A stretch of DNA of 64,000 nucleotides, from assembly GCA_039587355.1 (NCBI GenBank), contig JBDHIO010000009.1, positions 4,907 to 68,906 of the forward strand. Direction: 5' to 3'. Both the position numbers and the translations under genes were made by a program. Origin of the DNA: Gemmatimonadota bacterium. GTDB lineage: Bacteria; Gemmatimonadota; Gemmatimonadetes; Palauibacterales; Palauibacteraceae. The first letter of the stretch is position 1, and each line of letters opens with the position of its first letter. Below the pieces are notes generated by a model. The model made no database searches and was not told the origin of the DNA. It worked only from the letters and a program-made list of their open reading frames with translations. Positions 10,847 to 50,301 of this stretch are shown here, piece after piece.

Positions 10847-10888
10847 TGCGTCATCCCCCCATGTGTCATTCCCTCGATCCGCCTGCTC

Positions 10889-11928: not shown

Positions 11929-12010
11929 ACAACCATCGAAACCCTCTCAAACGTCCCACACGTATAGACCCGTATCCGCATGGCCGTAATACCGCCCCTG
12001 GAGGTGAGCA

Positions 12011-25816: not shown

Positions 25817-25876
25817 CACTCGAGATAGATCGACCCGATCACCGCACGTTCGGCGGATGATGATGAGTCGAGAGAG

Positions 25877-27189: not shown

Positions 27190-27225
27190 ACGGCGCGTGA
27201 GGATCGGTACTCGGAGGGTGGCCGG

Positions 27226-29590: not shown

Positions 29591-31060
29591 GTGCCACAAC
29601 TGACCATCTCAAGCGAACGAGTCGAGCAGAGACTCCTGCACCGCGGCATGCCGCCCCTCCGGGTCGGACAACCGCCCGCGCAATTCTCCGGCTTCGCGTC
29701 GGACTCGCGAGCCGTTCACGAAGGCACTCTTTTCGCTGCTGTCCCGGGCACCCGCGTCGATGGTCACGACTTCGTCGCGGCCGCGGCGGAGGCGGGGGCG
29801 ACGGCGGCCCTGGTCGAGCGCGAACTCGATGTGCCGATCCCTCAATATGTCGTACCGGACGGTCGCCTGGGCGTCGCGCACCTCGCGATGCTGTTCGCCG
29901 GAGATCCCGCTGCGGACATGCGTGTGACCGCCGTGACGGGAACGAACGGCAAGTCCACCACGACGTGGCTCGTTCGCTGGCTTCTGGCCGACTCGGCACC
30001 CTCGGCCGCGGTCGGGACGCTCGGAGTCGTCGACGCGGAGGGCCGGGTAGGGAAGGGATCCCTGACCACGCCCGACCCGATCGACCTCGCCTGGATGCTC
30101 TCGGGGCTCCGCGACGAAGGGGTGGTGAACGTCGCCCTGGAAGCCTCGTCGCACGCCCTCGACCAGCGCCGGATCGACGGGCTGCGCTTCGCCGCCATCG
30201 CCTACACGAGCTTCAGTCGCGAGCACCTCGAGTATCACGCCGACCTCACCGCGTATCGCGACGCCAAGGTGCGGCTCACCGAGCTCCTCTCGACCGGCGG
30301 TGTGTGCGCGGTGAACGCCGACGAGCCCGAGTGGCGCGACCTGCGACCCGCGGACGCCAGAGTGCTGCGCTACGGGTTCGCGGAAGGATCCGATGTTCGG
30401 GCGGTCGACGCCCGGTTCTTCGCGGGTGGTACGGACTTCACCCTGGTGACGCCGGACGGGGAGGCGGACGTCTCGCTACCGTTGCCCGCCGACTTCAACG
30501 TGAGCAACGCGCTCGCGGCGGCCGCGGTCGCCTGGGGTCTGGGTCGCGACGTCGCGGAGGTCGCGGAACGCCTCTCCTCGGCTCCTTCCGTTCCCGGGCG
30601 GATGGAGGTTCTCCGCCGTTCTCCCACGCTGGTATTTCGAGACTACGCGCACACGCCCGACTCGTACGAGCGGGTTCTCGGAACCCTGAGAGGCCTGGTG
30701 CCGGGCCGAGTCGTGGCGGTGTTCGGGTGCGGAGGTGATCGGGACCCCGGCAAACGTCCGATCATGGGAGAGATCGCGACCCGCCTGGCGGATCTGAGCC
30801 TGGTCACGACGGACAATCCGCGCTCTGAGGACCCCGGGGAGATCTGCGCCCAGGTCGTGGAGGGAATCGACCCGGGGCGATACGAGATCGTGCTCGATCG
30901 TCGCGACGCGATCGCCAGGGCGCTCTCCGAGACGGGCCCGGACGACGCGGTGGTTCTGCTCGGGAAGGGACACGAGACCTACCAGCTCATCGGTGACGAG
31001 CGCCTCCCCTTCGACGAGGCTGCGATCGTGGAGGAACTGCTGGTGGGGGCGGGCGCATGA
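29591..31060 (+). CDS. murE: UDP-N-acetylmuramoyl-L-alanyl-D-glutamate--2,6-diaminopimelate ligase MurE
   Basis: DSRAV...LFAAVPGTRVDGHDFV, GTNGKSTT, DNPR. Start uncertain: GTG 29591 or ATG 29648; the ORF track opens at 29486. Confidence 0.85.
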   Translation: MPQLTISSERVEQRLLHRGMPPLRVGQPPAQFSGFASDSRAVHEGTLFAAVPGTRVDGHDFVAAAAEAGATAALVERELDVPIPQYVVPDGRLGVAHLAMLFAGDPAADMRVTAVTGTNGKSTTTWLVRWLLADSAPSAAVGTLGVVDAEGRVGKGSLTTPDPIDLAWMLSGLRDEGVVNVALEASSHALDQRRIDGLRFAAIAYTSFSREHLEYHADLTAYRDAKVRLTELLSTGGVCAVNADEPEWRDLRPADARVLRYGFAEGSDVRAVDARFFAGGTDFTLVTPDGEADVSLPLPADFNVSNALAAAAVAWGLGRDVAEVAERLSSAPSVPGRMEVLRRSPTLVFRDYAHTPDSYERVLGTLRGLVPGRVVAVFGCGGDRDPGKRPIMGEIATRLADLSLVTTDNPRSEDPGEICAQVVEGIDPGRYEIVLDRRDAIARALSETGPDDAVVLLGKGHETYQLIGDERLPFDEAAIVEELLVGAGA

Positions 31061-32439
31061 CGGCGGCACGCGAGCTGGGCTCCGGGATGATCCGCGAGAC
31101 CCTCGGCCTCCCGGATGCCGATTCCGAACGAATGTTCGGAGGGGTTTCGATCGACTCGAGGTCGGTGACGCCCGGGGATCTGTTCGTCGCGCTCAGGGGC
31201 GAGCGCGTGGATGGGGCGGAGTTTCTCGCGCAGGTCGCCGAGGCCGGGGCGACCGGGGCGATCGTCACCAGCGGTCGCGAGGATCACGACCTGCCGCTGG
31301 AGTACTTCGCCGTCGATGACACGGCGGAGGCGCTCACCCGTCTCGCGGCTCGGGTCCGCGCTGACGCGACGGCTCGGGTCGTCGGTGTCACGGGAAGCTC
31401 GGGCAAGACGACCGTGAAGGAGATGATCGCCTGCGCCCTGAGCGGCTCACACCGCGTGTTCCGGACGGAGGGCAACCTGAACAGCCAGATCGGCCTCCCG
31501 CTCTCGATCCTCAGGACGCCCGTGGACGCGGAGTTTTGGGTGCTCGAGATCGGCGCCAGCGAGCCCGGCGAGATTGGTCGCCTGACCGCGCTGGCCGCTC
31601 CCGACGATGTCGTCTTGACCACCGTGGGTGCCGCCCACCTCGAGGCGTTCGGAGACGAAGCCGGCGTGCTGGACGAGAAACTGGACCTGGTGCGAGGCGC
31701 CTCACCCGCCGGGACCGTCGTCGTCGGCGAACTTCCGGCCATGCTGCACAAGGCCGCGCGCGAGCTTCGTCCCGACACGCTGGTCGCGGGCCTCGGGGCC
31801 GCAGCGGACGTCCGACCCGAGACTTCGGTGGTGGGTGCCGAGGCCGTGTCGTTCGATTTCGAAGGACAGCGGTTCGATGTGCCCGCCGGTGGAGAGCACC
31901 ATCTGCGGGACGCCCTGATGGCGGTCGCGATCGCGAAGGCTGCCGATGTTCCGATGGCGGCAGCGGCGACCGGCCTCGCGCGCTACGTCCCGCTGGGGCA
32001 TCGCGGGGCCGTCGTCCGGGTCGGAGACCTGACCGTGCTGGCGGACTGCTACAACGCGAACCCTGAATCATTCGGGGCGGCCATCGCACAGTGCCGCGAC
32101 CTCTACCCCGGGCGACGGCTCGCCGCGTTCGTCGGTTCGATGCTCGAACTCGGCGACCACGAGGCGGCTGCGCACCGGTCGGTGTTGCAGCAGCTGCGCG
32201 CCGCAGGATTCGAGAGCATCGCCGCCACCGGTTTGTTCGCGGGCGTGTCCGAAGCCGGTCCGCTCGTCCAGGTGTCGGAGGACCCGGAGGCGGCCTGGCC
32301 GGCGTTCGCCGCCACGCTGCGTGGCGACGAGGTGGTGCTCGTGAAGGCGTCGCGCGGCGCGCGTCTCGAGAGAGTCCTGGGCTGGCTGGAGAATCGATTC
32401 GGAGTCGGCAACGCACGTCTGACTGGAGAAACTCGCTGA
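31057..32439 (+). CDS. murF: UDP-MurNAc-pentapeptide synthetase MurF
   Basis: GVTGSSGKTT P-loop and Mur ligase domains. ATGA overlap with murE. Confidence 0.9.
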   Translation: MTAARELGSGMIRETLGLPDADSERMFGGVSIDSRSVTPGDLFVALRGERVDGAEFLAQVAEAGATGAIVTSGREDHDLPLEYFAVDDTAEALTRLAARVRADATARVVGVTGSSGKTTVKEMIACALSGSHRVFRTEGNLNSQIGLPLSILRTPVDAEFWVLEIGASEPGEIGRLTALAAPDDVVLTTVGAAHLEAFGDEAGVLDEKLDLVRGASPAGTVVVGELPAMLHKAARELRPDTLVAGLGAAADVRPETSVVGAEAVSFDFEGQRFDVPAGGEHHLRDALMAVAIAKAADVPMAAAATGLARYVPLGHRGAVVRVGDLTVLADCYNANPESFGAAIAQCRDLYPGRRLAAFVGSMLELGDHEAAAHRSVLQQLRAAGFESIAATGLFAGVSEAGPLVQVSEDPEAAWPAFAATLRGDEVVLVKASRGARLERVLGWLENRFGVGNARLTGETR

Positions 32440-33545
32440 TGCTGTTCCATCTGCTCTTTCCGCTCGCGGACCAGCACATCCTGTTCAATGTCTTCCAGTA
32501 CATCTCGTTCCGCGCGGCCGGGGCGATGGTCACGGCGCTGCTGACCGCGTTTCTCGTCGGCCCTCGCGTGATCGGGTGGCTGCAGACGAGGGGCTGGGGA
32601 CAGGTCGTGCGGGCGGAGGGGCCGTCGACCCACCTCAAGAAGGCGGGTACTCCGACGATGGGTGGGCTGATCATCCTCGCGGCCGTCGTTCTGCCGACCG
32701 TCCTGTGGGCGCGGTTCGACCGACCCTTCGTCTGGATCGCATTGGGTGTCACCGCGTGGATGGGCGCGATCGGGTTCATGGACGACTACCTCAAGATCGT
32801 CCGACACGAATCACGCGGTCTGATCGCCCGGTACAAGTTGATCTGGCAGTTCATCCTGGGTCTGGCTCTCGGCGGGCTCCTTCTCGCGATGCCGCTCTCG
32901 GAGTACGGCGCGACACAGACGATGCTGCCGTTCTTCAAGGACTGGAGCGTGGTGATCGTTCCGGCCCTCTTCCCCCTGTTCGTCGCGATCGTCGTCGCTG
33001 GAAGCGCGAACACCGTGAACCTGACCGATGGGCTCGACGGCCTGGCGACCGGGTTGAGCGCCATCGCCGCGATCACGTTCGGTTTGTTCGCGTACGCCGT
33101 GGGTCGGATCGACACGTCGGCGTATCTGGGGGTCTTCTACCTTCCGGGCGCGGGTGAGCTGGCGATCTTCTGCGCGGCCCTGGCGGGTGCCGCGATCGGG
33201 TTCCTGTGGTTCAACGCTCCGCCTGCCCAGGTCTTCATGGGTGACACCGGGTCGCTGGCGCTCGGCGGCGCGATCGGCGCGGTCGCGGTGCTCCTCAAGT
33301 CCGAGTTCCTGCTCGTGATCGTCGGCGGCGTGTTCGTCCTCGAGGGGCTGTCGGTGATCATTCAGACAGGCTGGTTCCGCTACACGAAGAAACGGACGGG
33401 GACGGGACGACGCGTGTTCCGGATGGCACCGCTCCACCACCACTTCGAGAAGCTGGGATGGCCGGAGACCCGGGTCGTGGTTCGGTTCTGGATCCTCGGA
33501 ATCATCTTCGCGCTGGTCAGCCTGGCCACGCTGAAGGTGCGCTGA
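32439..33545 (+). CDS. mraY: phospho-N-acetylmuramoyl-pentapeptide transferase MraY
   Basis: MLFHLLFPL...NLTDGLDGLA...PAQVFMGDTGSLALGG. TGATG overlap with murF. Confidence 0.9.
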   Translation: MLFHLLFPLADQHILFNVFQYISFRAAGAMVTALLTAFLVGPRVIGWLQTRGWGQVVRAEGPSTHLKKAGTPTMGGLIILAAVVLPTVLWARFDRPFVWIALGVTAWMGAIGFMDDYLKIVRHESRGLIARYKLIWQFILGLALGGLLLAMPLSEYGATQTMLPFFKDWSVVIVPALFPLFVAIVVAGSANTVNLTDGLDGLATGLSAIAAITFGLFAYAVGRIDTSAYLGVFYLPGAGELAIFCAALAGAAIGFLWFNAPPAQVFMGDTGSLALGGAIGAVAVLLKSEFLLVIVGGVFVLEGLSVIIQTGWFRYTKKRTGTGRRVFRMAPLHHHFEKLGWPETRVVVRFWILGIIFALVSLATLKVR

Positions 33546-34912
33546 TGCCCCTCTTCGAACGGGGAGATCCCGTCGCGGTTCTCGGGCTCGGAGCCTCCGG
33601 GCTCGCCGCTGCCCGGCTCGCGCACTCCCTCGGGGGCGACGTGTACGCGAGCGACTTCGGGTCCGGATCAGGTCAGGGGCAGGCGGCCGAGTCTCTGTGC
33701 GCCGAAGGGATACGCGCCGAGGCGGGCGGGCACGACATGGATCGGATCCTGTCTTCCGCCGTGGTCATCACGAGTCCCGGCATCGACCCTCGCACCGACG
33801 TCCGGAGCGCGGTCTCGGATGCGGGCCTGCGCACGGTAGCCGAGATCGAACTCGCGTTTCGGAGCCTTCGCTCCAGGGTGATCGGTATCACCGGCACCAA
33901 CGGAAAGACCACCGCGACCGCGCTGTGCGGACACCTGCTCGAGACGGGCGGCGTCTCCGCGGTGACGGCCGGAAACATCGGTCGGCCGCTCTCCGACGTC
34001 GCGATGATGGCCGACCAGCCCGACTGGGCGGTCGTCGAGCTGAGCTCGTTCCAACTGGCCGATCTGGAAACCTTCGCCCCGGCGATCGGGGTGCTGCTCA
34101 ACCTCGCTCCCGACCACCTGGATCGATACGCGAGTCTGGAGAAGTACTACGCCGACAAGGCGTGCCTCTTCGCGAACGCGACAGACGACAGCGCCTGGGT
34201 ACTCAACGGAGACGACCCGGCGGTGATGGACCTCGCGCGCGGGGTCCCGGGCTCACACTACCTGAGTTCGCTCGACGCGCCCGAAGGCGACGGTTCGTTC
34301 GTCGACGACGGCTGGCTGGCGCAGCGCGTCGGTGGCGTCACGACGCGGTGGATGCGCACCGAGGACCTGCCGCTCCCCGGTCGTCACAACTGGATGAACG
34401 CGCTCATGGCCGGGCTCGCCGCCTCACTGGCTGGCTGCCAACCGGAGGCGGTAGGGCGGGGGCTCGGTGGTTTTCGCGGGCTTCCCCACCGGCTCGTGCC
34501 GGTCCGTGAGGTCGACGGCGTGCTGTGGGTGAACGACTCGAAGGCGACGAACATCTCGGCCACGCGAGTCGCGCTGGCGGCGTACGATCGACCGCTCGTC
34601 GTGATGCTCGGAGGCCGGCACAAGGGTGAACCGTACACGTCGCTGCTGCCCGGCGTGGGTGAGGCTCGGGCCGTCGTGGCCTACGGCGAGAGCGCTCCGA
34701 TCATCCAGCGCGAGCTCGGCCCTTCCGTGGACGTGCATCTGGCGAACGGGCTCGAAGACGCGGTGCGCAGGGCGCGGAAGCAAGCGAGATCGGGTGACGT
34801 GGTGCTCTTCTCTCCGGCCTGTTCGAGCTACGACATGTTCCCGAGCTACGCGGTGCGAGGAGACACGTTCGAACGACTGGTCGCGGCGCTCGACACGGAG
34901 GACGACTCATGA
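33545..34912 (+). CDS. murD: UDP-N-acetylmuramoylalanine--D-glutamate ligase MurD
   Basis: VLGLGASGLAAARL Rossmann segment and GITGTNGKTT. Confidence 0.9.
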   Translation: MPLFERGDPVAVLGLGASGLAAARLAHSLGGDVYASDFGSGSGQGQAAESLCAEGIRAEAGGHDMDRILSSAVVITSPGIDPRTDVRSAVSDAGLRTVAEIELAFRSLRSRVIGITGTNGKTTATALCGHLLETGGVSAVTAGNIGRPLSDVAMMADQPDWAVVELSSFQLADLETFAPAIGVLLNLAPDHLDRYASLEKYYADKACLFANATDDSAWVLNGDDPAVMDLARGVPGSHYLSSLDAPEGDGSFVDDGWLAQRVGGVTTRWMRTEDLPLPGRHNWMNALMAGLAASLAGCQPEAVGRGLGGFRGLPHRLVPVREVDGVLWVNDSKATNISATRVALAAYDRPLVVMLGGRHKGEPYTSLLPGVGEARAVVAYGESAPIIQRELGPSVDVHLANGLEDAVRRARKQARSGDVVLFSPACSSYDMFPSYAVRGDTFERLVAALDTEDDS

Positions 34913-36063
34913 CCCAGGCGACGCTCGACTGGGGGCTCGCTCCCGTTCAGACCTCGACCGGTTCGCCCGCGTGGGTGCGACGGGCGCTCCTGTCGCTCAC
35001 CGGCGGCCTCGTTCTGGTCGGACTGCTGTCCGTCTATTCGGCGAGTTCGTTCGCGGCCCAGCAGGCCGGCCTGCCGGCCAGCTATTTCGTGGTGAACCAG
35101 CTCGCCCGGGCCGCGGCCGGCGCCGTCGTCCTGTTCATCGCGTCGTTCGTCGACTATCGCATCTACCGGAAGCTCGCCTGGCCCATACTCGGTTCCGTGG
35201 CGCTCCTGCTGATTCTCGTTGTGCTGCCCTGGACCACGGAGATCGCGCCGGTGCGGAACGGCGCCCGCAGGTGGATCACACTCGGGCCGGTCACCTTCCA
35301 GCCGAGCGAGATCGCCAAGGTCGCCATCGTCATCTGGGTCGCGGCTCTGGCGGAGCGGAAGCAGGACAGACTGCCCTCCTTCCGCGACGGCCTTCTTCCG
35401 TTTCTCATCGTTCTCGGGCCGTTGATCGGGCTCATCCTGATCGAGCCGCATCTGTCGGCCACTCTCATCACGTCGGCCCTCGCGGCGACGGTCCTGTTCG
35501 CCGCGGGCGCGCGCTTTCGCCACTTCGCGATGCTCGCCGCGCCGGCCATCCCGCTCCTGTGGTTCTCGATCCGCAGCAACAGCTACCAGTTGAAGCGGAT
35601 CATGGCGTTCCTGAATCCCGAGGCGGACCTCACAGGGGTCGGGTATCAGCTTCAGCAGGCGCGCATCGCGATCGGCTCGGGCGGGGCGATCGGGGTCGGG
35701 TTCGGCGAGAGCACTCAGAAGCTCCAGTACCTTCCAGAGCCGCAGAACGACTTCATCTTCCCGATCATCGCGGAGGAGTGGGGGTTCATCGGCGCGACCA
35801 TCCTGTTGGGGGCGTTCCTCTTCTGGACCCTCCTCGGGTTTCGCATCGCCTCGTCGGCCCCCGATCTGTTCGGGCGTCTGCTCGCCATCGGGCTGACCGG
35901 GATCGTCGCCCTCGGCGCGTTCCTCCACATGGGGATCACCATGGGTGTGCTTCCGACGACCGGCGTGAGTCTGCCCTTCATCAGCGCGGGCGGGACGGGG
36001 ATCGTCGTAGCCCTCGGGGTGACGGGAGTTCTCCTGAACATCGCGTCGAAGCGCAGCGCCTGA
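34909..36063 (+). CDS. ftsW: SEDS-family peptidoglycan glycosyltransferase FtsW
   Basis: 10-TM SEDS protein with FQPSEIAK and PEPQNDFIFPII motifs. ATGA overlap. Confidence 0.9.
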   Translation: MTQATLDWGLAPVQTSTGSPAWVRRALLSLTGGLVLVGLLSVYSASSFAAQQAGLPASYFVVNQLARAAAGAVVLFIASFVDYRIYRKLAWPILGSVALLLILVVLPWTTEIAPVRNGARRWITLGPVTFQPSEIAKVAIVIWVAALAERKQDRLPSFRDGLLPFLIVLGPLIGLILIEPHLSATLITSALAATVLFAAGARFRHFAMLAAPAIPLLWFSIRSNSYQLKRIMAFLNPEADLTGVGYQLQQARIAIGSGGAIGVGFGESTQKLQYLPEPQNDFIFPIIAEEWGFIGATILLGAFLFWTLLGFRIASSAPDLFGRLLAIGLTGIVALGAFLHMGITMGVLPTTGVSLPFISAGGTGIVVALGVTGVLLNIASKRSA

Positions 36064-36064
36064 C

Positions 36065-37171
36065 GTGGCGGGCGCGCGGATTCTGTTCACGGGCGGCGGT
36101 ACGGGAGGTCATCTGTACCCTGCCCTGAACATCGCCGCGGCGATCCATGGGCTCGACCCGTCGGCCGAGTGTTACTTCGTGGGCAGTCGACGGGGGATCG
36201 AATCCACCGTTCTGCCGGACGCCGGGTACCCACACCGCCTCCTCCCCCTCGAGCCGATACGGCGTGCGAAGCCGTGGCGGAATTGGCGGCTGCTCGCGAC
36301 CGCTCCGTCCGTCATCTCCGGCGTGTCCTCCGTCTTCCGGTCCTTTCGCCCGCACGTCGTCGTCGGAACCGGGGGGTACGTGTCGGGCGCGGCTCTCGCG
36401 TGGGGGCGGCTGACGGGCGTGCCGATCGTGCTGCAGGAGCAGAACGCCGAGCCGGGCTTCGTGACGAGACTCATGGCGAAGAGTGCGAGGCAGATCCACC
36501 TCGGATATCCGGAGGCCCGGCCACGTCTCTCCGTCGGTCCGGGCACGCGGATCCACGACACGGGGAACCCGGTCGCCGCCACGCGTGACGGTGACACGTA
36601 TCGATGGCCTGCCGGCCGCGTCCTGCTCGTCGTTGGTGGGAGCCAGGGTGCGCTCGGGGTCAACGAGGCCCTGCTGGGCGATCTGGAGACGGTGGAGCCG
36701 GCCGCCTGGCCCGACGACCTGACCGTTGTCTGGATCGCGGGACGCGCGCATGCGGAGTCGCTGGAGCAGCGCGTGGCCGGGCTGCGCGTGGCGGACCGGA
36801 TTCGCGTCGAGCCCTTCATCGCCGGTCTCGGCCGCCAGCTAGGGCATGTCGACCTCGCGCTCAGCCGTTCGGGGGCCATGCTGGTCGCCGAGTTGTGTGC
36901 CGCGTGCGTGCCGTCGGTTCTCGTTCCCCTGCCGACGGCCGCCGCCGATCATCAGACGATCAACGCCACCGCGCTCTCGGATGCGGGAGCCGCCGTGGTG
37001 CGACCGCAGGGCGAACTTCGGAGCGGGGATCTCTGGGCGACCTGTCTCGGCCTCATCCAGGACACCGAAGCGCTCGCGGCCATGGGCGAGGCGGCCCGCA
37101 CACGGGCTCGTCCGCACGCCGCGGAGGAGATCGCGGCTGCGGTTCTCGAACTCGCAGGGGAGGCGACGTGA
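36065..37171 (+). CDS. murG: UDP-GlcNAc:undecaprenyl-PP-MurNAc-pentapeptide GlcNAc transferase MurG
   Basis: GGGTGGHLYPAL N-terminal G-loop. GTG start 2 nt after the ftsW stop. Confidence 0.9.
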   Translation: MAGARILFTGGGTGGHLYPALNIAAAIHGLDPSAECYFVGSRRGIESTVLPDAGYPHRLLPLEPIRRAKPWRNWRLLATAPSVISGVSSVFRSFRPHVVVGTGGYVSGAALAWGRLTGVPIVLQEQNAEPGFVTRLMAKSARQIHLGYPEARPRLSVGPGTRIHDTGNPVAATRDGDTYRWPAGRVLLVVGGSQGALGVNEALLGDLETVEPAAWPDDLTVVWIAGRAHAESLEQRVAGLRVADRIRVEPFIAGLGRQLGHVDLALSRSGAMLVAELCAACVPSVLVPLPTAAADHQTINATALSDAGAAVVRPQGELRSGDLWATCLGLIQDTEALAAMGEAARTRARPHAAEEIAAAVLELAGEAT

Positions 37172-38550
37172 CGCTCCGGCTGGCCACACGCGCGGACCTT
37201 CCTCCCGAGGGCGGGCACGTTCACCTCGTCGGCGTGGGTGGGGCCGGGATGCGGGGGCTCGCGCTTCTCTACGACCACCTCGGGTACGAGGTCAGCGGCT
37301 GCGACCGGTCGGCGGGCGATGTCGCCGATCTGACCGACCGGGGCATTCGCTTCCTGGGGGATCACGATCCCTCCCACGTCGAAGCCGCCGATCTCGTCAT
37401 TCGGAGCTCGGCCGTGCCGGAAGACGCCCCCGAAATGCGGGCGGCAGGGGCGCGCGGCGTCCCCGTGCTGCGTCGCGCACGAGCCCTGGGCGCGGCTCTG
37501 AACGGTGCCCCCCTCGCGGGGATCGCGGGAACGCACGGCAAGACCACGATTACCGCGATGACGGGGTACGCCTGCGAGGAGGCGGGGCTCGATCCGACCG
37601 TGATGGTCGGGGGGCATGTCGGGGTGTGGGGTGGCTATGCCCGGTTGGGCGACGGGCCCGCGATCGTCGAGGCGGACGAATACGATCGCTCGTTTCTGGA
37701 ACTCGACCCCACGGTCGCGCTGGTCAGCTCGCTCGAGGCGGAGCACCTCGATATCTACGGTGACTTCGACGGCGTGCGTGCGGCGTTCAGGGACTTCGCG
37801 AGTCGGGCCGGCGGTGGCCCGGGCCTCCTGTACTGCGCCGACGATGAGGGCGCGCGCGCCCTCGGCGAGTCGATGGTCGGCGCCCGGTCGTACGGCTTCG
37901 CCGAAGCTTCTGACTACCGCCTCCTCCCCACCGACTCGCACGAGCGCTGGCACCTCGTCTGGGCGGAGGGCGAGATAGACATGGCTCTGAGGGTGCCGGG
38001 CCGTCACAACGCGCAGAACGCGGCGGGTGCGTTCGCCGTGGCCCGAACGCTGGGTGGGGATCCGGCGGGAATCGTCGCCGGTGTGGCGCGATTCCCGGGT
38101 GTCGGGCGGCGCCTGGAAATCCTGGGGACGTGGGGCGAGGTGACGCTGGTAGACGATTATGCCCACCACCCGACGGAGGTGGCCGCGTCGATCGAGGCCC
38201 TGCGGGCCGCATACCCCTCGGCGACGTTGAACGCGGTCTTTCAACCGCATCTCTTTACTCGCACCCGGGACTTCGCGGACGACTTCGCCGCGGCCCTGGG
38301 CGGGGCGGACCACGCGTTCGTGCTGCCGATCTATCCTGCGCGCGAGAAGCCGATCGAAGGGGTCACGTCCGATCTGATCACGGCGACGGGTCGTGCGGAG
38401 CCAATCGATCGCGAGGGGGCGCTCGAGCTCGCTCGACAGGCCGCGGGGCTGGGCCGTCGCATTGTCATCGCTTTCATGGGGGCGGGTGACGTCACCGGGA
38501 TCGCGAGGGAGGCCGCCGCGCATGCCGAATCGGGTCGGGGTCGCGAGTGA
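37168..38550 (+). CDS. murC: UDP-N-acetylmuramate--L-alanine ligase MurC
   Basis: HLVGVGGAGM and GTHGKTT motifs. GTGA overlap with murG. The long ORF 36604.. is a spurious 5' extension over murG. Confidence 0.9.
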   Translation: MTLRLATRADLPPEGGHVHLVGVGGAGMRGLALLYDHLGYEVSGCDRSAGDVADLTDRGIRFLGDHDPSHVEAADLVIRSSAVPEDAPEMRAAGARGVPVLRRARALGAALNGAPLAGIAGTHGKTTITAMTGYACEEAGLDPTVMVGGHVGVWGGYARLGDGPAIVEADEYDRSFLELDPTVALVSSLEAEHLDIYGDFDGVRAAFRDFASRAGGGPGLLYCADDEGARALGESMVGARSYGFAEASDYRLLPTDSHERWHLVWAEGEIDMALRVPGRHNAQNAAGAFAVARTLGGDPAGIVAGVARFPGVGRRLEILGTWGEVTLVDDYAHHPTEVAASIEALRAAYPSATLNAVFQPHLFTRTRDFADDFAAALGGADHAFVLPIYPAREKPIEGVTSDLITATGRAEPIDREGALELARQAAGLGRRIVIAFMGAGDVTGIAREAAAHAESGRGRE

Positions 38551-39452
38551 CCTCCCGGGTGGAGTGGCGATCGAACGTTCCGCTCGCCGGGCTCGCCCGC
38601 TACCGCATCGGAGGTCCGGCCGCCCGGCTGGGCATGGCGGATGACGTGGAGGGCGTCGTGTCGGCGATCCGGGAGATGGAGGGGCGCCCACACCTCGTTC
38701 TGGGGACCGGCGCGAACGTCCTGATCGCCGACGCCGGGGTCGCCGAATCCGTGCTGCTGCTCGGCCCGGGCCTGGACTACATGAAGGTCGAGGAAGGGGC
38801 GATCGAGGCCGGAGGAGCGGCGCGCCTGCCGGCCCTCGCGAACGCCGCGCGGAAGGGTGCGCGAGTGGGATTCCGCTTCCTCGAAGCGGTCCCCGGGACC
38901 GTCGGTGGCGGCCTCCGGATGAACGCCGGTTCCCGGGACGAATGGATCTGGCACAGGGTCGAGTGGGCCGAGGCCGTCTCGGATTCCGGTGAAGTCGTCC
39001 GGATCGGCCCGAACGACGCGGGTTTCGGGTATCGTCGGATCGAGATTCCCGAGTCGTGGGTGTTCGTCGGCGCCCGCTTTCATGCGAGGCCCGGAGACCC
39101 TATGCTGGTGGAGGAGGCGCATTTACGCTTCAGAAGTCGTAAAGTAGGAGACCAGGTATACGAGCTCCCGTCCGTGGGCTCGACCTGGAAGAACCCGGGG
39201 GGCCTGCACGGGTCGGCGTGGGAGATCGTCGACCAGGTGGGTATGAGGGGCGCGCGACGCGGCGATGCGCAAATTGCCGAACGCCACGCGAACTTCATCG
39301 TGAATCTTGGGGAGGCGAGGGCGGTGGACGTGGTGGAGTTGATGATCGAGACCCGGAAGCGGGCCCATGAGCAACTCGGGATCCTGTTGGAGCCCGAGAT
39401 CCGGCTCTGGGGCTTCACCTCCGATCAGCTCGAACTCGTGGGGGCCTCGTGA
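38547..39452 (+). CDS. murB: UDP-N-acetylenolpyruvoylglucosamine reductase MurB
   Basis: FAD-binding RIGGPA...VLGTGANVL and the C-terminal SVGSTWKNP motif. GTGA overlap. Confidence 0.9.
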   Translation: MTSRVEWRSNVPLAGLARYRIGGPAARLGMADDVEGVVSAIREMEGRPHLVLGTGANVLIADAGVAESVLLLGPGLDYMKVEEGAIEAGGAARLPALANAARKGARVGFRFLEAVPGTVGGGLRMNAGSRDEWIWHRVEWAEAVSDSGEVVRIGPNDAGFGYRRIEIPESWVFVGARFHARPGDPMLVEEAHLRFRSRKVGDQVYELPSVGSTWKNPGGLHGSAWEIVDQVGMRGARRGDAQIAERHANFIVNLGEARAVDVVELMIETRKRAHEQLGILLEPEIRLWGFTSDQLELVGAS

Positions 39453-40210
39453 GCGGCGGCTGGATTCCTTCCGGCCTCACCCGTCGCGGGCGACGTCGGC
39501 TCTTCGTCATCGCCACAGCCGGTGTCATGGGTCTCGGCGTACCCCAGTGGATGCCGCGGCTCCTCTCGACGCTCCCCGCGTTCCAGGTCGAGCACGTGAA
39601 GATCCTCGGGACCCGTCACGTCGCTCCGGACGAGATCAACCACCTCCTCGCGCTCGAGGCTGACGCTTCGGTGTGGGATTCCGTGGACCCCCTCGAGCGA
39701 CGCGTCCGCGAGCACCCGATGATCCGGGAAGCGACGGTCCGGCGCGAAGGCCTCAACGCCCTCTCCGTGATCGTGGTCGAGAAGCGCCCGGTCGCGCTGG
39801 TCGCCACTCCGGAACTCAAGGCCGTGAACGGAGGCGGCGTCGTGCTCCCGGTGGAACCGTTCATGGCGGGGCTCAACCTCCCGATCATCAGCGGCGTCAC
39901 CGAGGTCGAGGACGACGTCGTGCTGGAACCGGCCGTGCGCGAGATGGCCGGCGTCCTGGATCAACTGGTCCGCGTCGATCCCGGCTTCGTGTCGGTGGTG
40001 TCGGAGATCGGTCCCGCGACCGGCGGTGGATACGGCTTCACGATGCTGCCCGCAGCCGATGCCGAGGTCGTGCTGCTCCCGTCGAAAGGGCCCGTGCGAG
40101 CCCTACAGCGCGTGGCGCTGGCCCTCGGTCGGACCGAGGCGGCACGCGTCGCGCGAGCGGACGCGCGGTACTCACGACAGGTGGTCCTCACGCCGATGGA
40201 CGGTAGATGA
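39449..40210 (+). CDS. ftsQ: cell-division protein FtsQ (POTRA)
   Basis: Basic N-terminus plus TM helix LFVIATAGVMGLGV, then POTRA VEHVKILGTRHVAPDEI. Confidence 0.85.
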   Translation: MSGGWIPSGLTRRGRRRLFVIATAGVMGLGVPQWMPRLLSTLPAFQVEHVKILGTRHVAPDEINHLLALEADASVWDSVDPLERRVREHPMIREATVRREGLNALSVIVVEKRPVALVATPELKAVNGGGVVLPVEPFMAGLNLPIISGVTEVEDDVVLEPAVREMAGVLDQLVRVDPGFVSVVSEIGPATGGGYGFTMLPAADAEVVLLPSKGPVRALQRVALALGRTEAARVARADARYSRQVVLTPMDGR

Positions 40211-41436
40211 TCAGCGGTACGGGGGTCCTGGCCGGGATCGATATCGGCTCGACGAAGACCTGCGCGGTGGTGGCGGAGAGTCGTCCGGGCCGGGAACCGG
40301 GAGAGCCGCTCGAGCTGCTCGGGGTCGGAGTGAGCCGCGCCGGCGGGATGAACGGCCCCGCGATCACGAACCTCGAAGCGGCGACGCGGTCCATCCGGGA
40401 GGCGGTCCAGGAAGCCGAGCGCATGGCCGGGCGAGAGGTCGATGGCGTCTATATTTCCGTTCCGAGCACGTACATCCGGACGTCCCGCTCGCGCGGAGTC
40501 GTCGCGGTGTCTGGCGCGGAGATCACGCCGGCACACGTCCGACGGGTGCAGGAGGTCGGGCAGGCGGTGCCGATCCCGCCCGACCGACAGCTGATCCACG
40601 CGATCTGTCAGGAGTACTCGGTCGACGGACGGGGCGGCATACAGGACCCCGTCGGGATGGTCGCGACCCGGCTCGAAGCAGACGTCTGCGTCGTGACCGC
40701 CGAGTCCGCAGTGTGCCGCGACCTCGCGAAGGTCGTCGATCGGGCGGGGTACCGCGCGGGCGAATTCGTGATCGCGCCGCTGGCCTCGGGGCTCTCCCTG
40801 CTGGATGACGGCGATCGGGACGCCGGCGTCGCGCTTATCGAGATCGGTGGGGCAGCCACCGATGTTCTCGTCTATGGCGGCAAACGTCTGCTTCACGTAG
40901 CGACGATGCCGTGGGGCGGGGCGGCGGTGACCCGTGACGTGGCGCGCGGACTCGGGGTCCCGGAGGAAGAGGCCGGGCGGCTCAAGGAGAGCCACGGCTC
41001 GGCGCGCCGCAGCTCGGTGGATCCGGAGGAACAGCTCGAAGTGTCGGGACCATCGACGGGGGCGGGGAGACGCGTCTCACGCGAGCTCCTGGCACACATC
41101 ATCGAGCAGCGGCTGGACGAGATTCTCGGACTGGTCTACGAGGAGCTGGATGAGGCGGGCGTGAGGGACCGGCTCGGTGCCGGGATCGTTCTCGCCGGGG
41201 GCGGCGTCTGCACTCCGCAGACGGTCGAGCTCGCTCGGTCCGTCTTCAATCTCCCCGTCAGGCTCGGGGTGCCCGGTGCGGGTCTGGCCGGGGCGACGAA
41301 CGCGGTCGCATCACCGGTGTTCGCCACCGGGGTGGGCCTCGCGATGTACGGCAGCATGCAGCGCAGTAGTGGCGGTATTGCGGGTGCGACCCGCGCGATT
41401 GCGCGGGTTGGTGGGTGGATTCGCGATTTCTTCTAG
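40207..41436 (+). CDS. ftsA: cell-division protein FtsA
   Basis: Actin-like ATPase: [14 protein letters not shown], the GGGV motif, and a C-terminal amphipathic tail. Confidence 0.9.
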
Positions 41437-41470
41437 GGCGGTGAACGGGACCGGGGGAGCGGAGGAGCAA

Positions 41471-42664
41471 ATGGTCTTCGAGTTCGACGACAACCTCGCG
41501 CGCAACGCGCGGATGAAAGTCGTGGGGGTGGGTGGTGCCGGCGGCAACGCGGTGAACCGGATGATCGACGAGCAGCTGGAGGGCGTCGAGTTCATCGCGG
41601 TGAATACCGATTCGCAGGCCCTCAAGCAGTCCGAGTCGCACATCAAGATTCAGATCGGAAAGCGACTCACGAGAGGTCTCGGGGCGGGCGCGCGGCCGGA
41701 GATCGGCCGGCAGGCGATCGCCGAGACCGAGGATGAGGTCCGGAAGTCTCTCGAAGGGGCAGACCTGGTGTTCGTGACCGCGGGCATGGGTGGCGGGACC
41801 GGGACCGGATCGGCTCCGGTGATCGGCCGCATCGCGCGCGAGATGGGCGCGCTCTGCATCGCGATCGTGACCCGGCCGTTTCACTTCGAGGGGAAGAAGC
41901 GCATGCGGCACGCGGAGATGGGTCTGCGAGAGCTTCGCCGCGCCGTCGACACGATGATCGTCGTGCCCAACGAGCGGCTCCTCGCCGTCGTCGGGAAGGA
42001 CACGACGTTCAGGGAGGCCCTCAAGAAGGCCGACGAGGTGCTGCTGCATGCGACGCAGGGGATCTCGGACCTGATCAGCGTCACGGGCGAGGTCAACGTC
42101 GACTTCGCGGACGTGCGCACGGTCATGTCGAATCGGGGGGCGGCACTCATGGGAACGGGCAGGGCGAGCGGGGACGAGCGGGCGGTCGACGCGGCCCAGC
42201 AGGCCATTTGCTCTCCCCTCCTCGACAACGTATCCATCAACGGCGCCACCGGCGTACTCGTGAATATCACGGGTGGCCCGGACCTCACGATCGATGAGGT
42301 TACCACGGTCAACTCGATCATCCAGGAAGCTGCGGGCGAGGACGGCGAGATGATCTTCGGCGTCGTTCACGACCAGCAACTCGAGGGATCGCTCCGCGTC
42401 ACGGTGATCGCCACTGGATTCGGCGAGCCGGTCGAGGAGGACGAACCGCTTCCGGTCCAGACCGAGACGATCACCGAGATCCGCTCGGATCCGATCGTGA
42501 TCGGATCGCGGTACGAAGGCCCTCAGCTGGTCGAGGAACCTGGCGTGGAGCCGCCGGTAGTGGAGATGCCGGCCGCGACGACGAACGACGAGCCGTGGAC
42601 CGATCCGGCGGAGGCCTTCGAGGATCTCGAGATCCCGACCTTCATCCGGCGACAGATGGACTGA
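41471..42664 (+). CDS. ftsZ: cell-division GTPase FtsZ
   Basis: [37 protein letters not shown] upstream of ATG 41471. The ORF track N-extension is spurious. Confidence 0.9.
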
Positions 42665-42700
42665 TCGCGAGCCGTCAGACGAGGCACGCGAGATGAACGG

Positions 42701-44012: not shown

Positions 44013-45950
44013 GTGAATCCGCTACTCTGGTCCGTCGCCGCGCTCGCCGCGATCGGCCTCGTCGCGTGGGCCTACGGCGCGCGCGAGGAGCGGGTGCCGG
44101 GTCGCTTCGGGCCCGCGGCCCTTCGCACCGCGGCGCTGTTTCTCATGCTCGCGGGTCTGGTGCTCCCGGCGCTGCGCGGACGTGTCATCGGGAGCCCCCA
44201 GCGTGTTGTCCTTTTGGACGCCTCGGCGAGCATGCAGCTCCCCGTTCGGGCTGGAGGCTCCGCCTCCACCAGGCTCGACTCGGCCCTGTCGGAGGTGTCT
44301 CGACTGGGCCCTGATCGCCTTTACACCTTCGGGGACGCCGTCGTCGGCGTCCCCGTTGGCGATCTCGATTCGGTCACTTCACGGGGGCGTCGATCGCGAG
44401 TACGACCCGCCCTGGAGGCCGCGCGCCTCGGCGGTGCCGACAGCGTGTGGATCGTGTCGGACGGACACTGGACGGATCGGGTGGAAGCCCTCGACGTCGC
44501 TCGTGGTCTGGGGCTCGGGGTGCGCGAGATCCGGGTGGTGGACGAGACACCGCGCGCGGGCATCGCGGCTGTTCGATCTCCGCAGCGAGCGCGCGCGGGT
44601 GATACCGTCCGGGTCGCGGTGGAGATCAGGGCCGCCGGTGTGGCGTCGGACGACAGCGTGACGGTCGACCTCGAGCTGGACGGCACACGACTCGCCCGGA
44701 GCCGGGTCGCCAGACCGACGGCGGGACGCGCGCTCGTCACCGAGCTCGAGTTCGTTCCCCTGGACCCGGGCGAACCGTCCGCGTGGCGTCGATACGAGGT
44801 CGCCCTTGGGGAGGGGGCGGATCCGCTCGGGGTCTCGGATCGGATCCCGACCTGGATCGAGATCTCCGAGTCTGCCACGGGCGCTGTCCTCGTGTCGCTC
44901 GCGCCCGACTGGGAGGCGCGTTTCCTCGTGCCGTCTCTTGAGCGGCTGGTCCTCGGGGGAGCCCGTGGCTTTCTGCAGCTGGCGGACGGCCGCTTCATCG
45001 ACATGGCAGCGAACCCACGCGTCGTCGGCGAGGACGCCGTCCGGGCTGCGCTGTCCGGGGCGAGGTTGCTCGTCGCCCAGGGGGATCCGGCGACGTTCCC
45101 GGGGTGGCTCTCCTCGGCCCTCGAGTCGCACCCCCGGGTCCTCGTCCTTCCGCGGGCCCCCGGCGACGTTCCCGGAACGGGCGTCCGGCTGACCGGTCCC
45201 GTCCCGGGGGAGTGGTACGCCTCCGGTCCGATTCCCCCGAGTCCCGCGGCGGCGCTGCTGACCGGGGTCGAGCTCGATCCGCTCCCGCCTGTGACCGAGC
45301 TCTACGCGGTGGACGAGCCGGGCGCATGGGCGGTTCTCAACGCGAGCCGCAACCGGCGGGGAGAGGGGCGGCCGCTTATGATCGCCGCGGAGCGCGGGTC
45401 GGCCCGCTGGGCGGTGGCTGCCGGGGCGGATTGGTGGAGGTGGGCGGCTCGAGGCGGGTCGGCAAGGCGGGTGTACGACGGGGTCTTCGCCGGCGTCGTC
45501 GGGTGGCTCGTCGAGGACGCCACGTCCGAGCTCGCGGCGCTAGTGGCGGTACCCGGCCCGGACCGGCCGTTCGAGTGGCGTGTCCGGCCCGGCGCGACGG
45601 ATATGCGAATCAGGATCGAAGACGAGGACGGGACCGCCGTCTTCGAGCAGACGTGGCCGACGCCCGATGAGCGGGTAGGGGCTTCCGGGCTCCCTCCGGG
45701 GCGGTATCGGATGGAGATCGAGGCCACGGGCCCCGACGGCCCGTTCAACTTCGAGCGGCCGCTGGAAATCGTCCCCGACCCGCTCGAGCTGCTGCCGGCG
45801 GCAACGGCGGCCCCCGCGGCGATCGAACCCGTCGTACAGACGCGTCCAGCGATCGAGGGACGCACGCCCCGGCCCGTGTGGCCCTTCGTCCTCGCCGTGA
45901 TCCTGCTCTGTATCGAGTGGGTCTGGAGACACCGGATCGGTCTGAGATGA
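44013..45950 (+). CDS. multi-TM protein with VWA-like domain (BatA-like)
   Basis: GTG start. Two N-terminal TM helices, then the MIDAS-like VVLLDASASM motif. C-terminal TM helix. 645 aa. Confidence 0.55.
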   Translation: MNPLLWSVAALAAIGLVAWAYGAREERVPGRFGPAALRTAALFLMLAGLVLPALRGRVIGSPQRVVLLDASASMQLPVRAGGSASTRLDSALSEVSRLGPDRLYTFGDAVVGVPVGDLDSVTSRGRRSRVRPALEAARLGGADSVWIVSDGHWTDRVEALDVARGLGLGVREIRVVDETPRAGIAAVRSPQRARAGDTVRVAVEIRAAGVASDDSVTVDLELDGTRLARSRVARPTAGRALVTELEFVPLDPGEPSAWRRYEVALGEGADPLGVSDRIPTWIEISESATGAVLVSLAPDWEARFLVPSLERLVLGGARGFLQLADGRFIDMAANPRVVGEDAVRAALSGARLLVAQGDPATFPGWLSSALESHPRVLVLPRAPGDVPGTGVRLTGPVPGEWYASGPIPPSPAAALLTGVELDPLPPVTELYAVDEPGAWAVLNASRNRRGEGRPLMIAAERGSARWAVAAGADWWRWAARGGSARRVYDGVFAGVVGWLVEDATSELAALVAVPGPDRPFEWRVRPGATDMRIRIEDEDGTAVFEQTWPTPDERVGASGLPPGRYRMEIEATGPDGPFNFERPLEIVPDPLELLPAATAAPAAIEPVVQTRPAIEGRTPRPVWPFVLAVILLCIEWVWRHRIGLR

Positions 45951-46891
45951 GCGACTTCAAGTTCGAAAGAAAGCGTTCGCTGTGGCGCAGGATCGTTGAT
46001 TTCGCGCTCACCGACGTGAACACGATCGTCGAGGGAGGCATCGACGAAGAGTCGATCGAGCGTCTCGAGCGCGTTCTCCTAGAGGCAGACTTCGGTGTGG
46101 AGACGGCGATGGATCTCGTCGCGGTTCTCGAACGGGAGAGCGAGCGAGGTCGTGTGACCTCGGCGTCGGCGCTCAGGACGCTCCTGGCCGAGGAGATCGG
46201 CGCGATTCTCCGGACCCCCGGGACGGAGCTTCCGGGCACGGAGGCGGGCGAACTCGCGCGCGGTGACGGTCTGGGAGTGATCCTCGTTCTCGGCGTTAAC
46301 GGCGTCGGGAAGACGACCTCGGTGGCGAAGCTCGCGCACCGGTTGTCCGCACGGGGCGACTCGGTTCTGCTGGCCGCGGCGGACACGTTCAGGGCCGGGG
46401 CGCAGGAGCAGCTCTCGGAGTGGGCGACGCGCATGGGGATCGAGTTCGTCGGTGGCGGCCCCGGCGCCGATCCGGCCGCGGTCGCGTTCGATGCGGTGGA
46501 GGCGGCACTGGCACGGGGCATGGATTGGGTGATCATCGACACGGCGGGTCGGCTGCACACGCAGACCGATCTCATGGCCGAGCTCGTGAAGATCGACCGC
46601 GTCGTCTCGCGGAAGGTCGACGGGGCTCCGCACGAACGGTTGCTTGTCGTCGACGCGACGTCGGGCCAGAACGTCCTGAACCAGGCGCGGCAGTTCGGGT
46701 CGACGCTCGCGCTGAGCGGTCTCGTGCTCGCCAAGTTCGACAGCACGGCGAGAGCCGGTACGGCCGTCGCGGTCGCGCGAGAGCTGTCCGTCCCCGTACG
46801 GTTCCTGGGGACCGGCGAGCGCCTCGAGGACCTGGAGCCGTTCACGCCGGACGAGTACGTGGAGAAACTGCTGGGGCCGACCGGGGAGTGA
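45947..46891 (+). CDS. ftsY: signal-recognition-particle receptor FtsY
   Basis: GVNGVGKTTS P-loop and the SRP54-type GTPase motifs DTAGR and AKFD. ATGA overlap with the upstream gene. Confidence 0.9.
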   Translation: MSDFKFERKRSLWRRIVDFALTDVNTIVEGGIDEESIERLERVLLEADFGVETAMDLVAVLERESERGRVTSASALRTLLAEEIGAILRTPGTELPGTEAGELARGDGLGVILVLGVNGVGKTTSVAKLAHRLSARGDSVLLAAADTFRAGAQEQLSEWATRMGIEFVGGGPGADPAAVAFDAVEAALARGMDWVIIDTAGRLHTQTDLMAELVKIDRVVSRKVDGAPHERLLVVDATSGQNVLNQARQFGSTLALSGLVLAKFDSTARAGTAVAVARELSVPVRFLGTGERLEDLEPFTPDEYVEKLLGPTGE

Positions 46892-46892
46892 C

Positions 46893-48858
46893 GTGCCGCG
46901 ACGATCGCTGCTTTCAGGACCCGTACAGTACCTGAAGGGCGTCGGGCCGCGCCGGGCCGAGCGCCTCGCGCAGATGAACATCCAGACCGGCCGGGACCTC
47001 CTGTATCACCTGCCGCATCGCTACGAGGACGCGACGACCGTGGACACGATTTCGTCGCTGGGACCCGGCGACGACGCGACGGTAATCGGTACCGTCGTGT
47101 CGAAGGGCGTGATTCCCACTCGACGGCGGCTGCGCGTCTTCCGCGTCGTTCTTCGCGACGACACGGGACAGATCGAATGCTCGTGGCCGGGACAGCCGTG
47201 GCTCGATCGTACGATCGCGCGCGGCGACCGGCTGCTCGTCTCCGGTCCCGTCCGGTTCTTTCACGGACGCCAGATACAGCCCAGGGAGCACACGGTGCTC
47301 TCCAGGGAAGGGGAGACGGAGGACGCGGGCGACCCGCGGGCCGCGTCCGCGGACGGGCAGGTCTTCCCCGTCTATCCCGCCACCGAGGGTCTGACGCACC
47401 GCCAGGTCCGCGGCATCGTCGATGAGAACCTCGACGCGCTCATCACGGATCTGGCGGAGCGGGACTCGCTCCCCGAGTCGTGGCGTGACGAACTGACGCT
47501 ACCGGATCTCGCCGGGGCGCTCGAGACGCTTCACCGTCCCCCGTCGCTGGATGCCATCGAGCCCGCCCGGCGGCGGCTGGCGTTCGAGGAGTTGTTCTAT
47601 CTGCAACTCCTTCACGCGCGCGCCCGAGCGCGGCTGCGACGGGACGTGGAGGGCATCGCATTCGTCGCGGCGGATGAGTTGACGCGCGGTCTGCTGGACG
47701 CGTTGCCCTTCGAGCTGACCGGCGCTCAGTCTCGGGTGTGTCATGGCTCCGACCGAGCTGCTCGCCGAGCAGCACATGCGCACGCTCACCGACCTCCTGG
47801 AACCGCTGGGTCCGAAGCCCGTGCTGCTCACGGGGTCGGTCACGGGCAAGGCCAGGCAGTACGCGCTGCAGCGTATCGAGTCGGGGGAGGCGGCCATCGT
47901 CGTCGGAACGCATGCCTTGATCCAGGATACCGTCGAGTTTCATTCGCTCGGGATCGCGATCGTCGACGAGCAGCACCGCTTCGGAGTCGAGCAACGACGT
48001 CGCCTGCGCGAGATGGGAGGATGCGCCGATGCGCTCGTCATGTCGGCGACGCCGATCCCGCGCAGCCTGGCGCTCGTCCTGTACGGCGATCTCGACCTGT
48101 CGGTGATCGACGAGATGCCCCCCGGCAGAAAGCCGGTGGTGACCGGGGTGCGGGGGCCCGACAGCCGCGAGGCCGCGTTCGATTTCCTTCGAAGTCAGCT
48201 CGAAGAAGGGCGGCAGGCCTACGTGGTCTACCCGATCATCGAAGAGTCGGAAGTCCTCGAGGTGCGGGCCGCGACATCGATGCACGAGCAGCTGTCGAAG
48301 AGGTTCGCGGACTTCGAGGTCGGACTGCTCCACGGCCGACTGAAGAGTGCCGAGAAGGATGAAGTCATGCGACGGTTTCTCGCTGGCGACGTGTCAGTAC
48401 TCGTCGCCACGACCGTGATCGAGGTCGGCATCGACGTCCCGAACGCCACGGTCATGTTCATCGAGGACGCCGAGCGCTTCGGACTCGCGCAGCTTCACCA
48501 GCTGCGGGGCCGCGTGGGACGAGGGGCCGATCAGAGCTACTGCGTCGCGTTCCAGTCGGGCAATGCGCCGTCCGAGCGATTGTCCGCCTTCGCCTCCACG
48601 AACGACGGTTTCAGACTGGCCGAGGAGGATCTGCGGATCCGGGGACAGGGGGACCTGTTCGGAAAGGACCAGTCAGGGATCGCCACACTGCGTTTCGCGG
48701 ATCTGGAGCGGGACCGCCGGCTGCTCGACGAGGCCCGGAACCGGGCGCGACGGATCGTGGCGGATGACCCGGAGCTGTCCGGGAGCGAGCACGCCGAGAT
48801 CCGACGGGAGCTCGAGGAACGGTATGCGGGCCGCGAGGCCCTGTACCAGATCGGCTGA
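46893..48858 (+). pseudogene. recG: recG (ATP-dependent DNA helicase), disrupted: helicase motif I missing and a frame change at ~47740
   Basis: ORF 46893..48362 encodes the RecG wedge/N-domain up to ...LPFELTGAQSRV. ORF 47743..48858, in frame +1, resumes at MAPTELLAEQH (motif Ia) and runs through motifs II-VI (DEQHRFGV, SATPIPRS, QLRGRVGRG). The ~44 aa in between, including GDVGSGKT, are absent from the DNA. Confidence 0.7.
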
Positions 48859-48869
48859 GGGGCACGACG

Positions 48870-50301
48870 ATGGGGCGACTGAACCGGCGCAATGAGGGCC
48901 GCGCCGCTATCCTGGCGGCTCTCGGCATCGCCGCGATGGCGTCCTGCCAGCGTGCGGACATGTCGCCGGGTCGGGTCGAGTCTACCCGGGTGCGGCCAGT
49001 GGTCGTCATAGACGGGCGCTTCGATGAGTGGGGCGCCGCGCGGTCGACGCAGTTCCCGGCGGGCGGATCGGTGGCATCGGTGTCCTCCCTGAGCGACAGC
49101 ACCGCTGTCTACGTCGCGCTCGCGCTCCGTGAGTCGACGAACCTGCAGGGAAGTGCATCGCCGCTCCTGCTCGTGTTCGATGCGGATGACGATCCGGCTA
49201 CGGGTGTGGCCGCTTTCGGCGTGCCCGGTGCGGATCTGGTGATCAGTTTCACCGCGCTCACCGAGGAAGGCACGGCGCAGGGTGTCGTGTCGTGGGTGCC
49301 CGACCCGGATGATCCGGAGCGGGTGACTGCCCCCTCGCGGCCCTTCGTCCCCGCCGATCTGGGTCTGTGGTTCGAGCCCCTTCACGCGACGGATCGGATC
49401 GAGTTGCGGCTCGCCCGCGGTGGCGCGAACGGACTCTTCGCGACCGAGGGATTCGCCGGGAGAATCGTGGTGCTCGAAGGGGGCGGTGCGGAGCGCGAGC
49501 GGAGCCCGCTGTTCAGGCATCGCGCCCCGGCCGCCGAGGCATTGACGGCGGAGGCGGAGCCGAGGTCAGGCCTCGATCGCGCGCCGGAGGCCGAATTTCG
49601 CGTGCTGGTGTGGAACGTCGCCGGGCGCCTCTCGTCGAATCCGGAGCCGTTCCGCGCGATCCTCCGCGCGATCGATGCCGACCTGGTGCTGCTCGACGAG
49701 GTGTCGGCGCGTACGGATCTCGCGGCGGTTCGGGCCGTGCTGCCCGGCGATCCATCGGAGTGGTCCGTGCACATCGGGTCCAGCGGGGGTCGGCAGCGGG
49801 GTGCGGTGGCGGCCCGATCGCCGCTGACCGCCGCCCGTCATCGATCTTGTTTGCTGCGGAAACTCGGTCACCTCGCGTCAGGACCGCGTGCGTGTTCTCG
49901 AGGCCGCCACGGTGAATCGAGCGGCGCGGCGGGCTGTCGCGTCCGCGGATGGATCGGCCGCCGCCGTGATCCTCGCCGGCGACTTCAACCTTGTCGGCTC
50001 GGAGACTCCGCTGATCACGGCGGGGCGGGGCCTCGACACGGGCGGCGGCGACCTCGAGCCGATCTACGCGCTACAACTGGACGGAGCGTCCACGGCAACG
50101 TGGATCGGTCCGTCCACACCGTTTCCGCCGGGCCAGCTGGACTACCTCCTGCACCCCTCCTCCCTCGAACCTCTCCGGGCGTTCGTCTTCGAAACCGAGG
50201 ACCTCGGTGTCGCTGATCTCGCTACCCTCGGTCTCTCAGCCGAGCTGAGCGATGACGCCTCGGACCATCGTCCGGTCGTCGCGGACTTCCGCTGGCGCTG
50301 A
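48870..50301 (+). pseudogene. lipoprotein with C-terminal endonuclease/exonuclease/phosphatase (EEP) domain, frameshifted at ~49828
   Basis: Lipobox AALGIAAMASCQ. EEP motifs FRVLVWNVAG and LLDEV sit in frame 0; AGDFNL and SDHRPVVADF sit in frame +1 (ORF 49888..50301). The frame-1 stop at 49825 and the C-rich tract GACCGCCGCCCG mark the shift. Confidence 0.55.

Follow-up and report, generated by a model that had tools for sequence, protein, structure and literature searches.

A recG gene without helicase motif I in a Gemmatimonadota contig, paired with a second out-of-frame deletion that points to a shared local cause

Introduction

RecG, which most bacteria encode (PMC4027168), is built from a wedge domain and an SF2 ATPase motor (PMC6213257). 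The described proteins closest to the locus studied here are the Thermotoga maritima enzyme (1GM5), the 693-residue RecG of structure 9WM0 and the profile family NF008168/TIGR00643, with all of which it shares the wedge, motifs Ia–VI, the TRG region and domain 3. In contrast to 1gm5_A and 9wm0_A, however, the recG of the window (the whole 64,000-nt stretch of DNA that was analysed) lacks about 46 residues (1gm5_A 376–422, 9wm0_A 277–322), among them motif I (Walker A), and its two halves lie in different reading frames. RecG is the best family match of both halves. The nearest paralogous SF2 motor is that of the transcription-repair coupling factor Mfd: The motor of the 3' part also matches TIGR00580 (274 bits), 6m6a and 2eyq, but the Mfd scores lie far under those of RecG, and the N-terminal part is a RecG wedge with no Mfd module.

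Results and Discussion

The recG gene changes frame at a hole of 134 nt

The lesion in recG is a direct reading of the sequence and involves no statistical signal: A continuous frame of ~690–700 codons, as expected for RecG, is absent, and the frame changes by +1 at 47738/47743 (Table 1). The translation of the 5' part ends at 47738 with ...ALPFELTGAQSRV, and ...CTCAGTCTCGGGTGTGG is the recG 5' sequence that leads up to the missing coding segment. The out-of-frame remainder of the first open reading frame translates into an Arg/Ala-rich tail with no family match, while the 3' part carries motifs Ia (MAPTELLAEQH), II (DEQH), III (SATPIPR), IV, V and VI (QLHQLRGRVGRG), the TRG region and the C-terminal domain. 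The codon-position GC profile and a seven-state hidden Markov segmentation place the switch of the coding frame at ~47720. The open reading frames, this switch and the tblastn alignments given below thus agree with the sequence-only reading, according to which recG jumps from ...LTGAQSRV to MAPTELLAEQH in a +1 frame. Public gene calls for the 3' part measure 360 and 371 aa (NCBI and JGI/IMG); both trace to one contig of 145,197 bp and hence do not count as independent.

Table 1. Coordinates of the recG locus and its neighbours in the window.
Feature	Position (nt)	Strand	Remarks
ftsY (signal-recognition-particle receptor)	45878..46891	+	stop 1 nt before recG start; conserved upstream neighbour
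Open reading frame of 489 aa	46893..48362	+	GTG start; recG wedge and linker to 47738, then out of frame
recG 5' part: wedge (OB-fold) domain and linker	46893..47738	+	ends ...LTGAQSRV, just before motif I
Junction 1, site of the 134-nt deletion	47736..47742	+	cgggtgtg/tcatggct (slash, junction); 44 codons + 2 nt, +1 shift; motif I (GDVGSGKT) removed
Out-of-frame tail of the 489-aa frame	47739..48362	+	spurious reading of the recG 3' part; GC pattern by codon position is that of the other frame
recG 3' part	47743..48858	+	+1 frame; starts MAPTELLAEQH at an ATG, the conserved Met of MAPTE
EEP gene 5' part: secreted protein or lipoprotein and start of EEP domain	48870..49835	+	L001 residues 63–371, L002 residues 3–227
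Junction 2, 158-nt deletion within the EEP domain	49833..49840	+	52 codons + 2 nt, +1 shift
EEP gene 3' part	49840..50301	+	+1 frame; IDLVCCGN...GDFNLVGS...SDHRPVVADFRWR

The hole was sized against the closest relative, L001, whose RecG is intact: its residues 5–279 align by tblastn in frame 3, ending at 47738 (75% identity), and residues 324–696 align without gaps in frame 1 from 47737 (81% identity), so that the two alignments overlap by 2 nt (47737–47738). The 44-residue stretch of L001 that is absent here includes the Walker A loop. The DNA alignment of recG (A1) contains a single gap of exactly 134 columns (216–349), which corresponds to 44 codons and 2 nt and bears out the earlier statement that some 44 codons with the Walker A sequence GDVGSGKT are missing. 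Any microhomology at this junction amounts to 1–2 nt at most.

Profile and structure matches delimit the same segment. In the 5' part, the Pfam wedge domain (PF17191, RecG_wedge) is matched at profile positions 1–160 of 162 with E = 2.9e-20, and the 3' part matches DEAD (profile positions 51–164 only), Helicase_C and RecG_dom3_C. The NCBIfam RecG profile NF008168 is covered at positions 106–370 by the 5' part (186 bits) and at 420–794 by the 3' part (583 bits), with 371–419 unmatched; its cut-off of 718 bits is reached by neither fragment alone, although their sum would reach it. Similarly, 1gm5_A is matched at 113–375 and 423–770, and 9wm0_A at 4–276 and 323–674. What is present therefore comprises the N-terminal wedge, motifs Ia–VI, the TRG region and C-terminal domain 3, and what is missing is SF2 motif I (the GxGKT of Walker A), whose place is after the linker and ahead of motif Ia. 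Pfam, NCBIfam and the L001 alignment accordingly concur with the view that the rest of recG, from the wedge to motif VI, is intact.

An SF2 motor without the Walker A loop and its lysine is not expected to bind or hydrolyze ATP. Since motif I is lost and RecG depends on the coupling of its wedge to the SF2 ATPase motor, no active RecG would arise from the gene as written; judged by its sequence, this reading of recG cannot encode an ATP-driven RecG translocase. The expected products would be, at most, a wedge fragment with a nonsense tail and a motor fragment without motif I. Among the papers searched, none combined RecG with a K302A mutant.

The adjacent gene carries a second out-of-frame deletion

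The gene that adjoins recG downstream (48870–50301) belongs to the endonuclease/exonuclease/phosphatase (EEP) family and has an out-of-frame deletion of its own, which the sequence-only reading had not mentioned. Its 3' part is 53–59% identical to residues 426–582 of L001 and 283–433 of a second relative (L002), and residues 372–425 and 228–282 of these orthologues, which are continuous, have no counterpart at the junction. On either side, the alignments fall in different frames with just 4–7 nt between them (49835, 49840), and the DNA alignment of the gene contains a gap of 158 columns. The codon-position GC profile places the frame switch at ~49785. Correspondingly, the EEP domain is not complete in any one frame: PF03372 is matched at positions 2–84 (23.2 bits, below the cut-off of 24.5) and 132–225 (31.4 bits) in different frames, with 85–131 absent.

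The two junctions are 2,098 nt apart, and both deletions (134 and 158 nt) are 2 mod 3 in length and produce a +1 shift. The lesion is thus not specific to recG, and its pairing with the one in the EEP gene shifts the balance towards either a local reconstruction problem or a single complex event. A sensitive tblastn search of the 64-kb window for the missing recG and EEP-gene peptides returned noise only.

Motif I and gene order are conserved among relatives

In the species-representative collection, metagenome-assembled genomes (MAGs) of uncultured Gemmatimonadota come nearest to the window. The closest of them, L001 (CAZCLY010000011.1; 82% aa), shares with the window the order ftsY–recG–EEP gene as well as a 673-aa gene further upstream, but unlike the window it has one unbroken recG frame with GDVGSGKT and an unbroken EEP gene. 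The window's recG accordingly occupies the orthologous position within a conserved gene order. The ftsY gene, compared by tblastn with L001, L002, L081 and L083 (59–73% identity), lies directly upstream of recG in all four; the genes called at its position in L081 and L083 contain SRP54 domains.

Motif I was surveyed in 83 loci, two of which were set aside, L082 for a truncation at the contig edge and L081 for a separate lesion. All of the remaining 81 informative loci align in one piece through GxGK[TS], and RecG is kept in all 80 species-representative relatives examined. The comparison with the recG of relatives, which had been proposed as a check, therefore yields an uninterrupted motif in every informative case, and homologues that naturally lack the segment, the other outcome considered at the time, number 0 of 81. 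With motif I universal, the segment absent from the window and recoding insufficient to replace it, the original alternative of pseudogene or assembly error is what is left.

Material from the same species was sought in two further collections. In the protein collection, only the calls from the contig itself were recovered (100%), the next best match standing at 79%; in JGI metagenome contigs, a wobble-tolerant pattern placed just upstream of the junction gave no match.

Other short or broken recG calls have separate causes

The 371-aa call for the 3' part has counterparts of exactly this length (P0011, P0021) in public data. They arise because the gene caller, given a contig that begins only a short way upstream, takes the Met of MAPTE as the start, which is shown directly for L082/P0011 only: L082 (1–1149), which encodes P0011, has in-frame RecG sequence upstream to the contig edge and is thus a truncation.

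L081 (ENA contig NODE_11377, coverage ~2.5; 1082–3135) resembles the window in consisting of a wedge frame and a 371-aa frame starting at MAPTE, separated by an out-of-frame deletion in the P-loop region, but differs in that the deletion measures only 34 nt and sits at a different position, right after GDVGSG, where it is flanked by TGG microhomology. L083 (Logan SRR34348011; 3001–5088), a contig of another assembly that is ~96% identical to L081, has an intact RecG of 695 aa. L081 was found by picking 371-aa matches and hence provides no evidence for a deletion hotspot. A family of stand-alone 371-aa RecG proteins without motif I was considered and rejected, as L082 is an edge truncation and L081 bears a different lesion with an intact close relative.

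A broken frame was also observed in a third MAG, L003 (JBDHFW010000209.1), where the 673-aa gene that precedes ftsY has a homologue (219–2032) occupying two frames, with a split at ~1517/1523; frame breaks are thus also present in other public Gemmatimonadota MAGs.

The damage is confined to two genes and shows no sign of age

The window has a GC content of 66.8% and contains no N; neither N runs nor scars mark the junctions. A scan of codon-position GC along the 64 kb detected no frame break besides these two, within the limits of a method that is blind to lesions in the weakly coding stretch at 4.4–12 kb and to in-frame deletions in poorly conserved genes. Five further candidate breaks proposed by a GC3 hidden Markov scan were explained, on inspection, by neighbouring genes or inexact boundaries. 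In the dcw cluster, ten genes (ftsI, murE, murF, mraY, murD, ftsW, murG, murC, murB, ftsA) each match an NCBIfam profile over its full length in a single stretch. The clean frame scan and these full-length genes lead us to reject genome-wide decay or a generally error-prone assembly. The dcw cluster itself (25400–42700) is complete and in canonical order: mraZ, rsmH, an ftsL-like gene, ftsI, murE, murF, mraY, murD, ftsW, murG, murC, murB, ftsQ, ftsA and ftsZ.

A relative-rate test on RecG, polarised with ten outgroup RecG sequences, counted 31 lineage-unique changes in the window against 24 in L001 (p = 0.42). This non-significant result, together with the remaining motifs, which are all intact, rejects a long-standing pseudogene. 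In the absence of excess change, the recG lesion is therefore either recent or not biological.

Origin of the two deletions

We consider a local defect of sequence reconstruction the most likely cause of both holes and assign it a probability of roughly 0.55. The argument for one local cause is drawn from the combination of findings above: two lesions of the same type lie side by side in an otherwise clean 64-kb sequence with no sign of decay, and recG is kept by every relative. From this we infer that both holes share one local cause. More specifically, lesions of 134 and 158 nt, of the same unusual kind and free of repeats, affect adjacent genes, whereas chance would place two independent pseudogenes side by side in a non-decaying genome with a probability of a few percent. 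The halves of recG are fully conserved outside the hole, with no period of relaxed constraint, and a comparable lesion occurs in the low-coverage L081 while L083 is intact. Mechanistically, the assembly may have linked a piece of ~2.1 kb (47739–49835) to the sequence on either side over two short gaps that were uncovered or badly closed, with no N placeholders inserted; alternatively, a faulty long-read backbone might have been polished only in part. In either case the organism itself would have both recG and the EEP gene intact.

Two observations speak against such a defect. The junctions are clean, and common short-read assemblers break the contig or insert Ns rather than abut sequence, so that the artefact would need a particular step in the pipeline. 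The same lesion also appears in the NCBI and the JGI/IMG gene calls, though these, as noted, represent a single contig. Moreover, junctions whose microhomology is 1–2 nt long are just as compatible with real deletions by illegitimate recombination or end joining.

Genuine recent deletions are accordingly the strongest alternative, a serious possibility that we nevertheless place below even odds. The dominant strain would then carry a recG null allele and a broken EEP gene, produced in quick succession or in one complex event, for example when two breaks close to each other, with 1–2 nt of microhomology, were repaired by end joining or template switching. Junctions free of N within a contig of 145 kb agree with such an origin, as does short microhomology with no flanking repeat, which is typical of illegitimate recombination; the lack of long-term decay fits a recent event. 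From the genetics of E. coli, recG is dispensable in model bacteria, and by analogy with E. coli recG mutants we propose that a cell without RecG would survive via RuvABC and other routes of fork processing. On the other side, two similar deletions in adjacent genes with none other in ~55 genes call for either a coincidence or a complex event, both of them rare, RecG is retained by every species-representative relative, and the allele occurs in no second assembly among the collections searched. The more elaborate form, in which both deletions are real and stem from a single complex episode of microhomology-mediated repair that left the intervening 2.1 kb untouched, so that a naturally recG-null Gemmatimonadota lineage dominates the population, strikes us as rather unlikely. 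If true, it would offer a field example of RecG loss, possibly together with a clustered rearrangement of the kind that RecG normally helps prevent.

A collapse of ~130 bp in the assembly had been offered as the technical explanation; two copies of a repeat inside recG would have been merged. It is a subset of the artefact hypothesis, and its size falls in the range of read- or k-mer-related artefacts. In 12 relatives, however, the borders of the missing recG segment share matches of at most 5–7 nt, which is chance level, and the segment is of constant length and unique sequence. Within the window, a search for direct repeats, hairpins or a shared motif at either junction gave chance-level matches only, and the 158-nt lesion likewise has no flanking repeat. 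In each gene, the GTCAT common to the two junctions belongs to the native coding sequence (V-M and V-I). An assembly artefact thus remains the favoured cause, while collapse as its mechanism loses its footing, as no border repeat exceeds 7 nt in the 12 relatives, and we regard it as very improbable.

The reading of the locus as a natural functional variant, be it a split or motif-I-less RecG-like protein or a product of programmed frameshifting, an intein or other recoding, can draw on the fact that both halves are open and that an ATG, the conserved Met of MAPTE, opens the second, but it is effectively refuted: a +1 ribosomal shift would rejoin the frames, yet neither it nor splicing can bring back the Walker A lysine and the rest of the 44 absent codons, the window does not encode the missing peptide at any other place, the architecture occurs in 0 of 81 relatives, the other 371-aa RecG calls reduce to the edge truncation of L082 or the other lesion of L081, and the sequence after the junction has recG's own frame signal and not that of an inserted element.

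The case is one of an ordinary local sequence lesion in an ordinary RecG orthologue, more likely an assembly defect than evolved biology. Its practical value lies in a warning for annotation and quality control: the genome as deposited would score as lacking a functional RecG, and, should the lesion be an artefact, any inference about repair pathways or metabolism that builds on this genome would be wrong. That a second hole lies 2.1 kb away serves as a useful flag for a problem of local reconstruction. Real deletions, on the other hand, would make recG an ordinary pseudogene of recent origin, in a repair function that is not essential, and of modest interest to specialists in replication restart.

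Apart from the recG locus, the window contains a region of ~7.7 kb (4360–12072) whose GC content of 59–65% differs from the ~67% found otherwise and which has nearly no codon-position GC signal and short open reading frames only. One of the nine frames tested there matched Pfam, namely an alpha/beta hydrolase (BD-FAE) at 7141–8085, and a tRNA-Val(TAC) gene lies within the region at 10695–10770. The region may thus be foreign or degraded DNA beside a tRNA gene.
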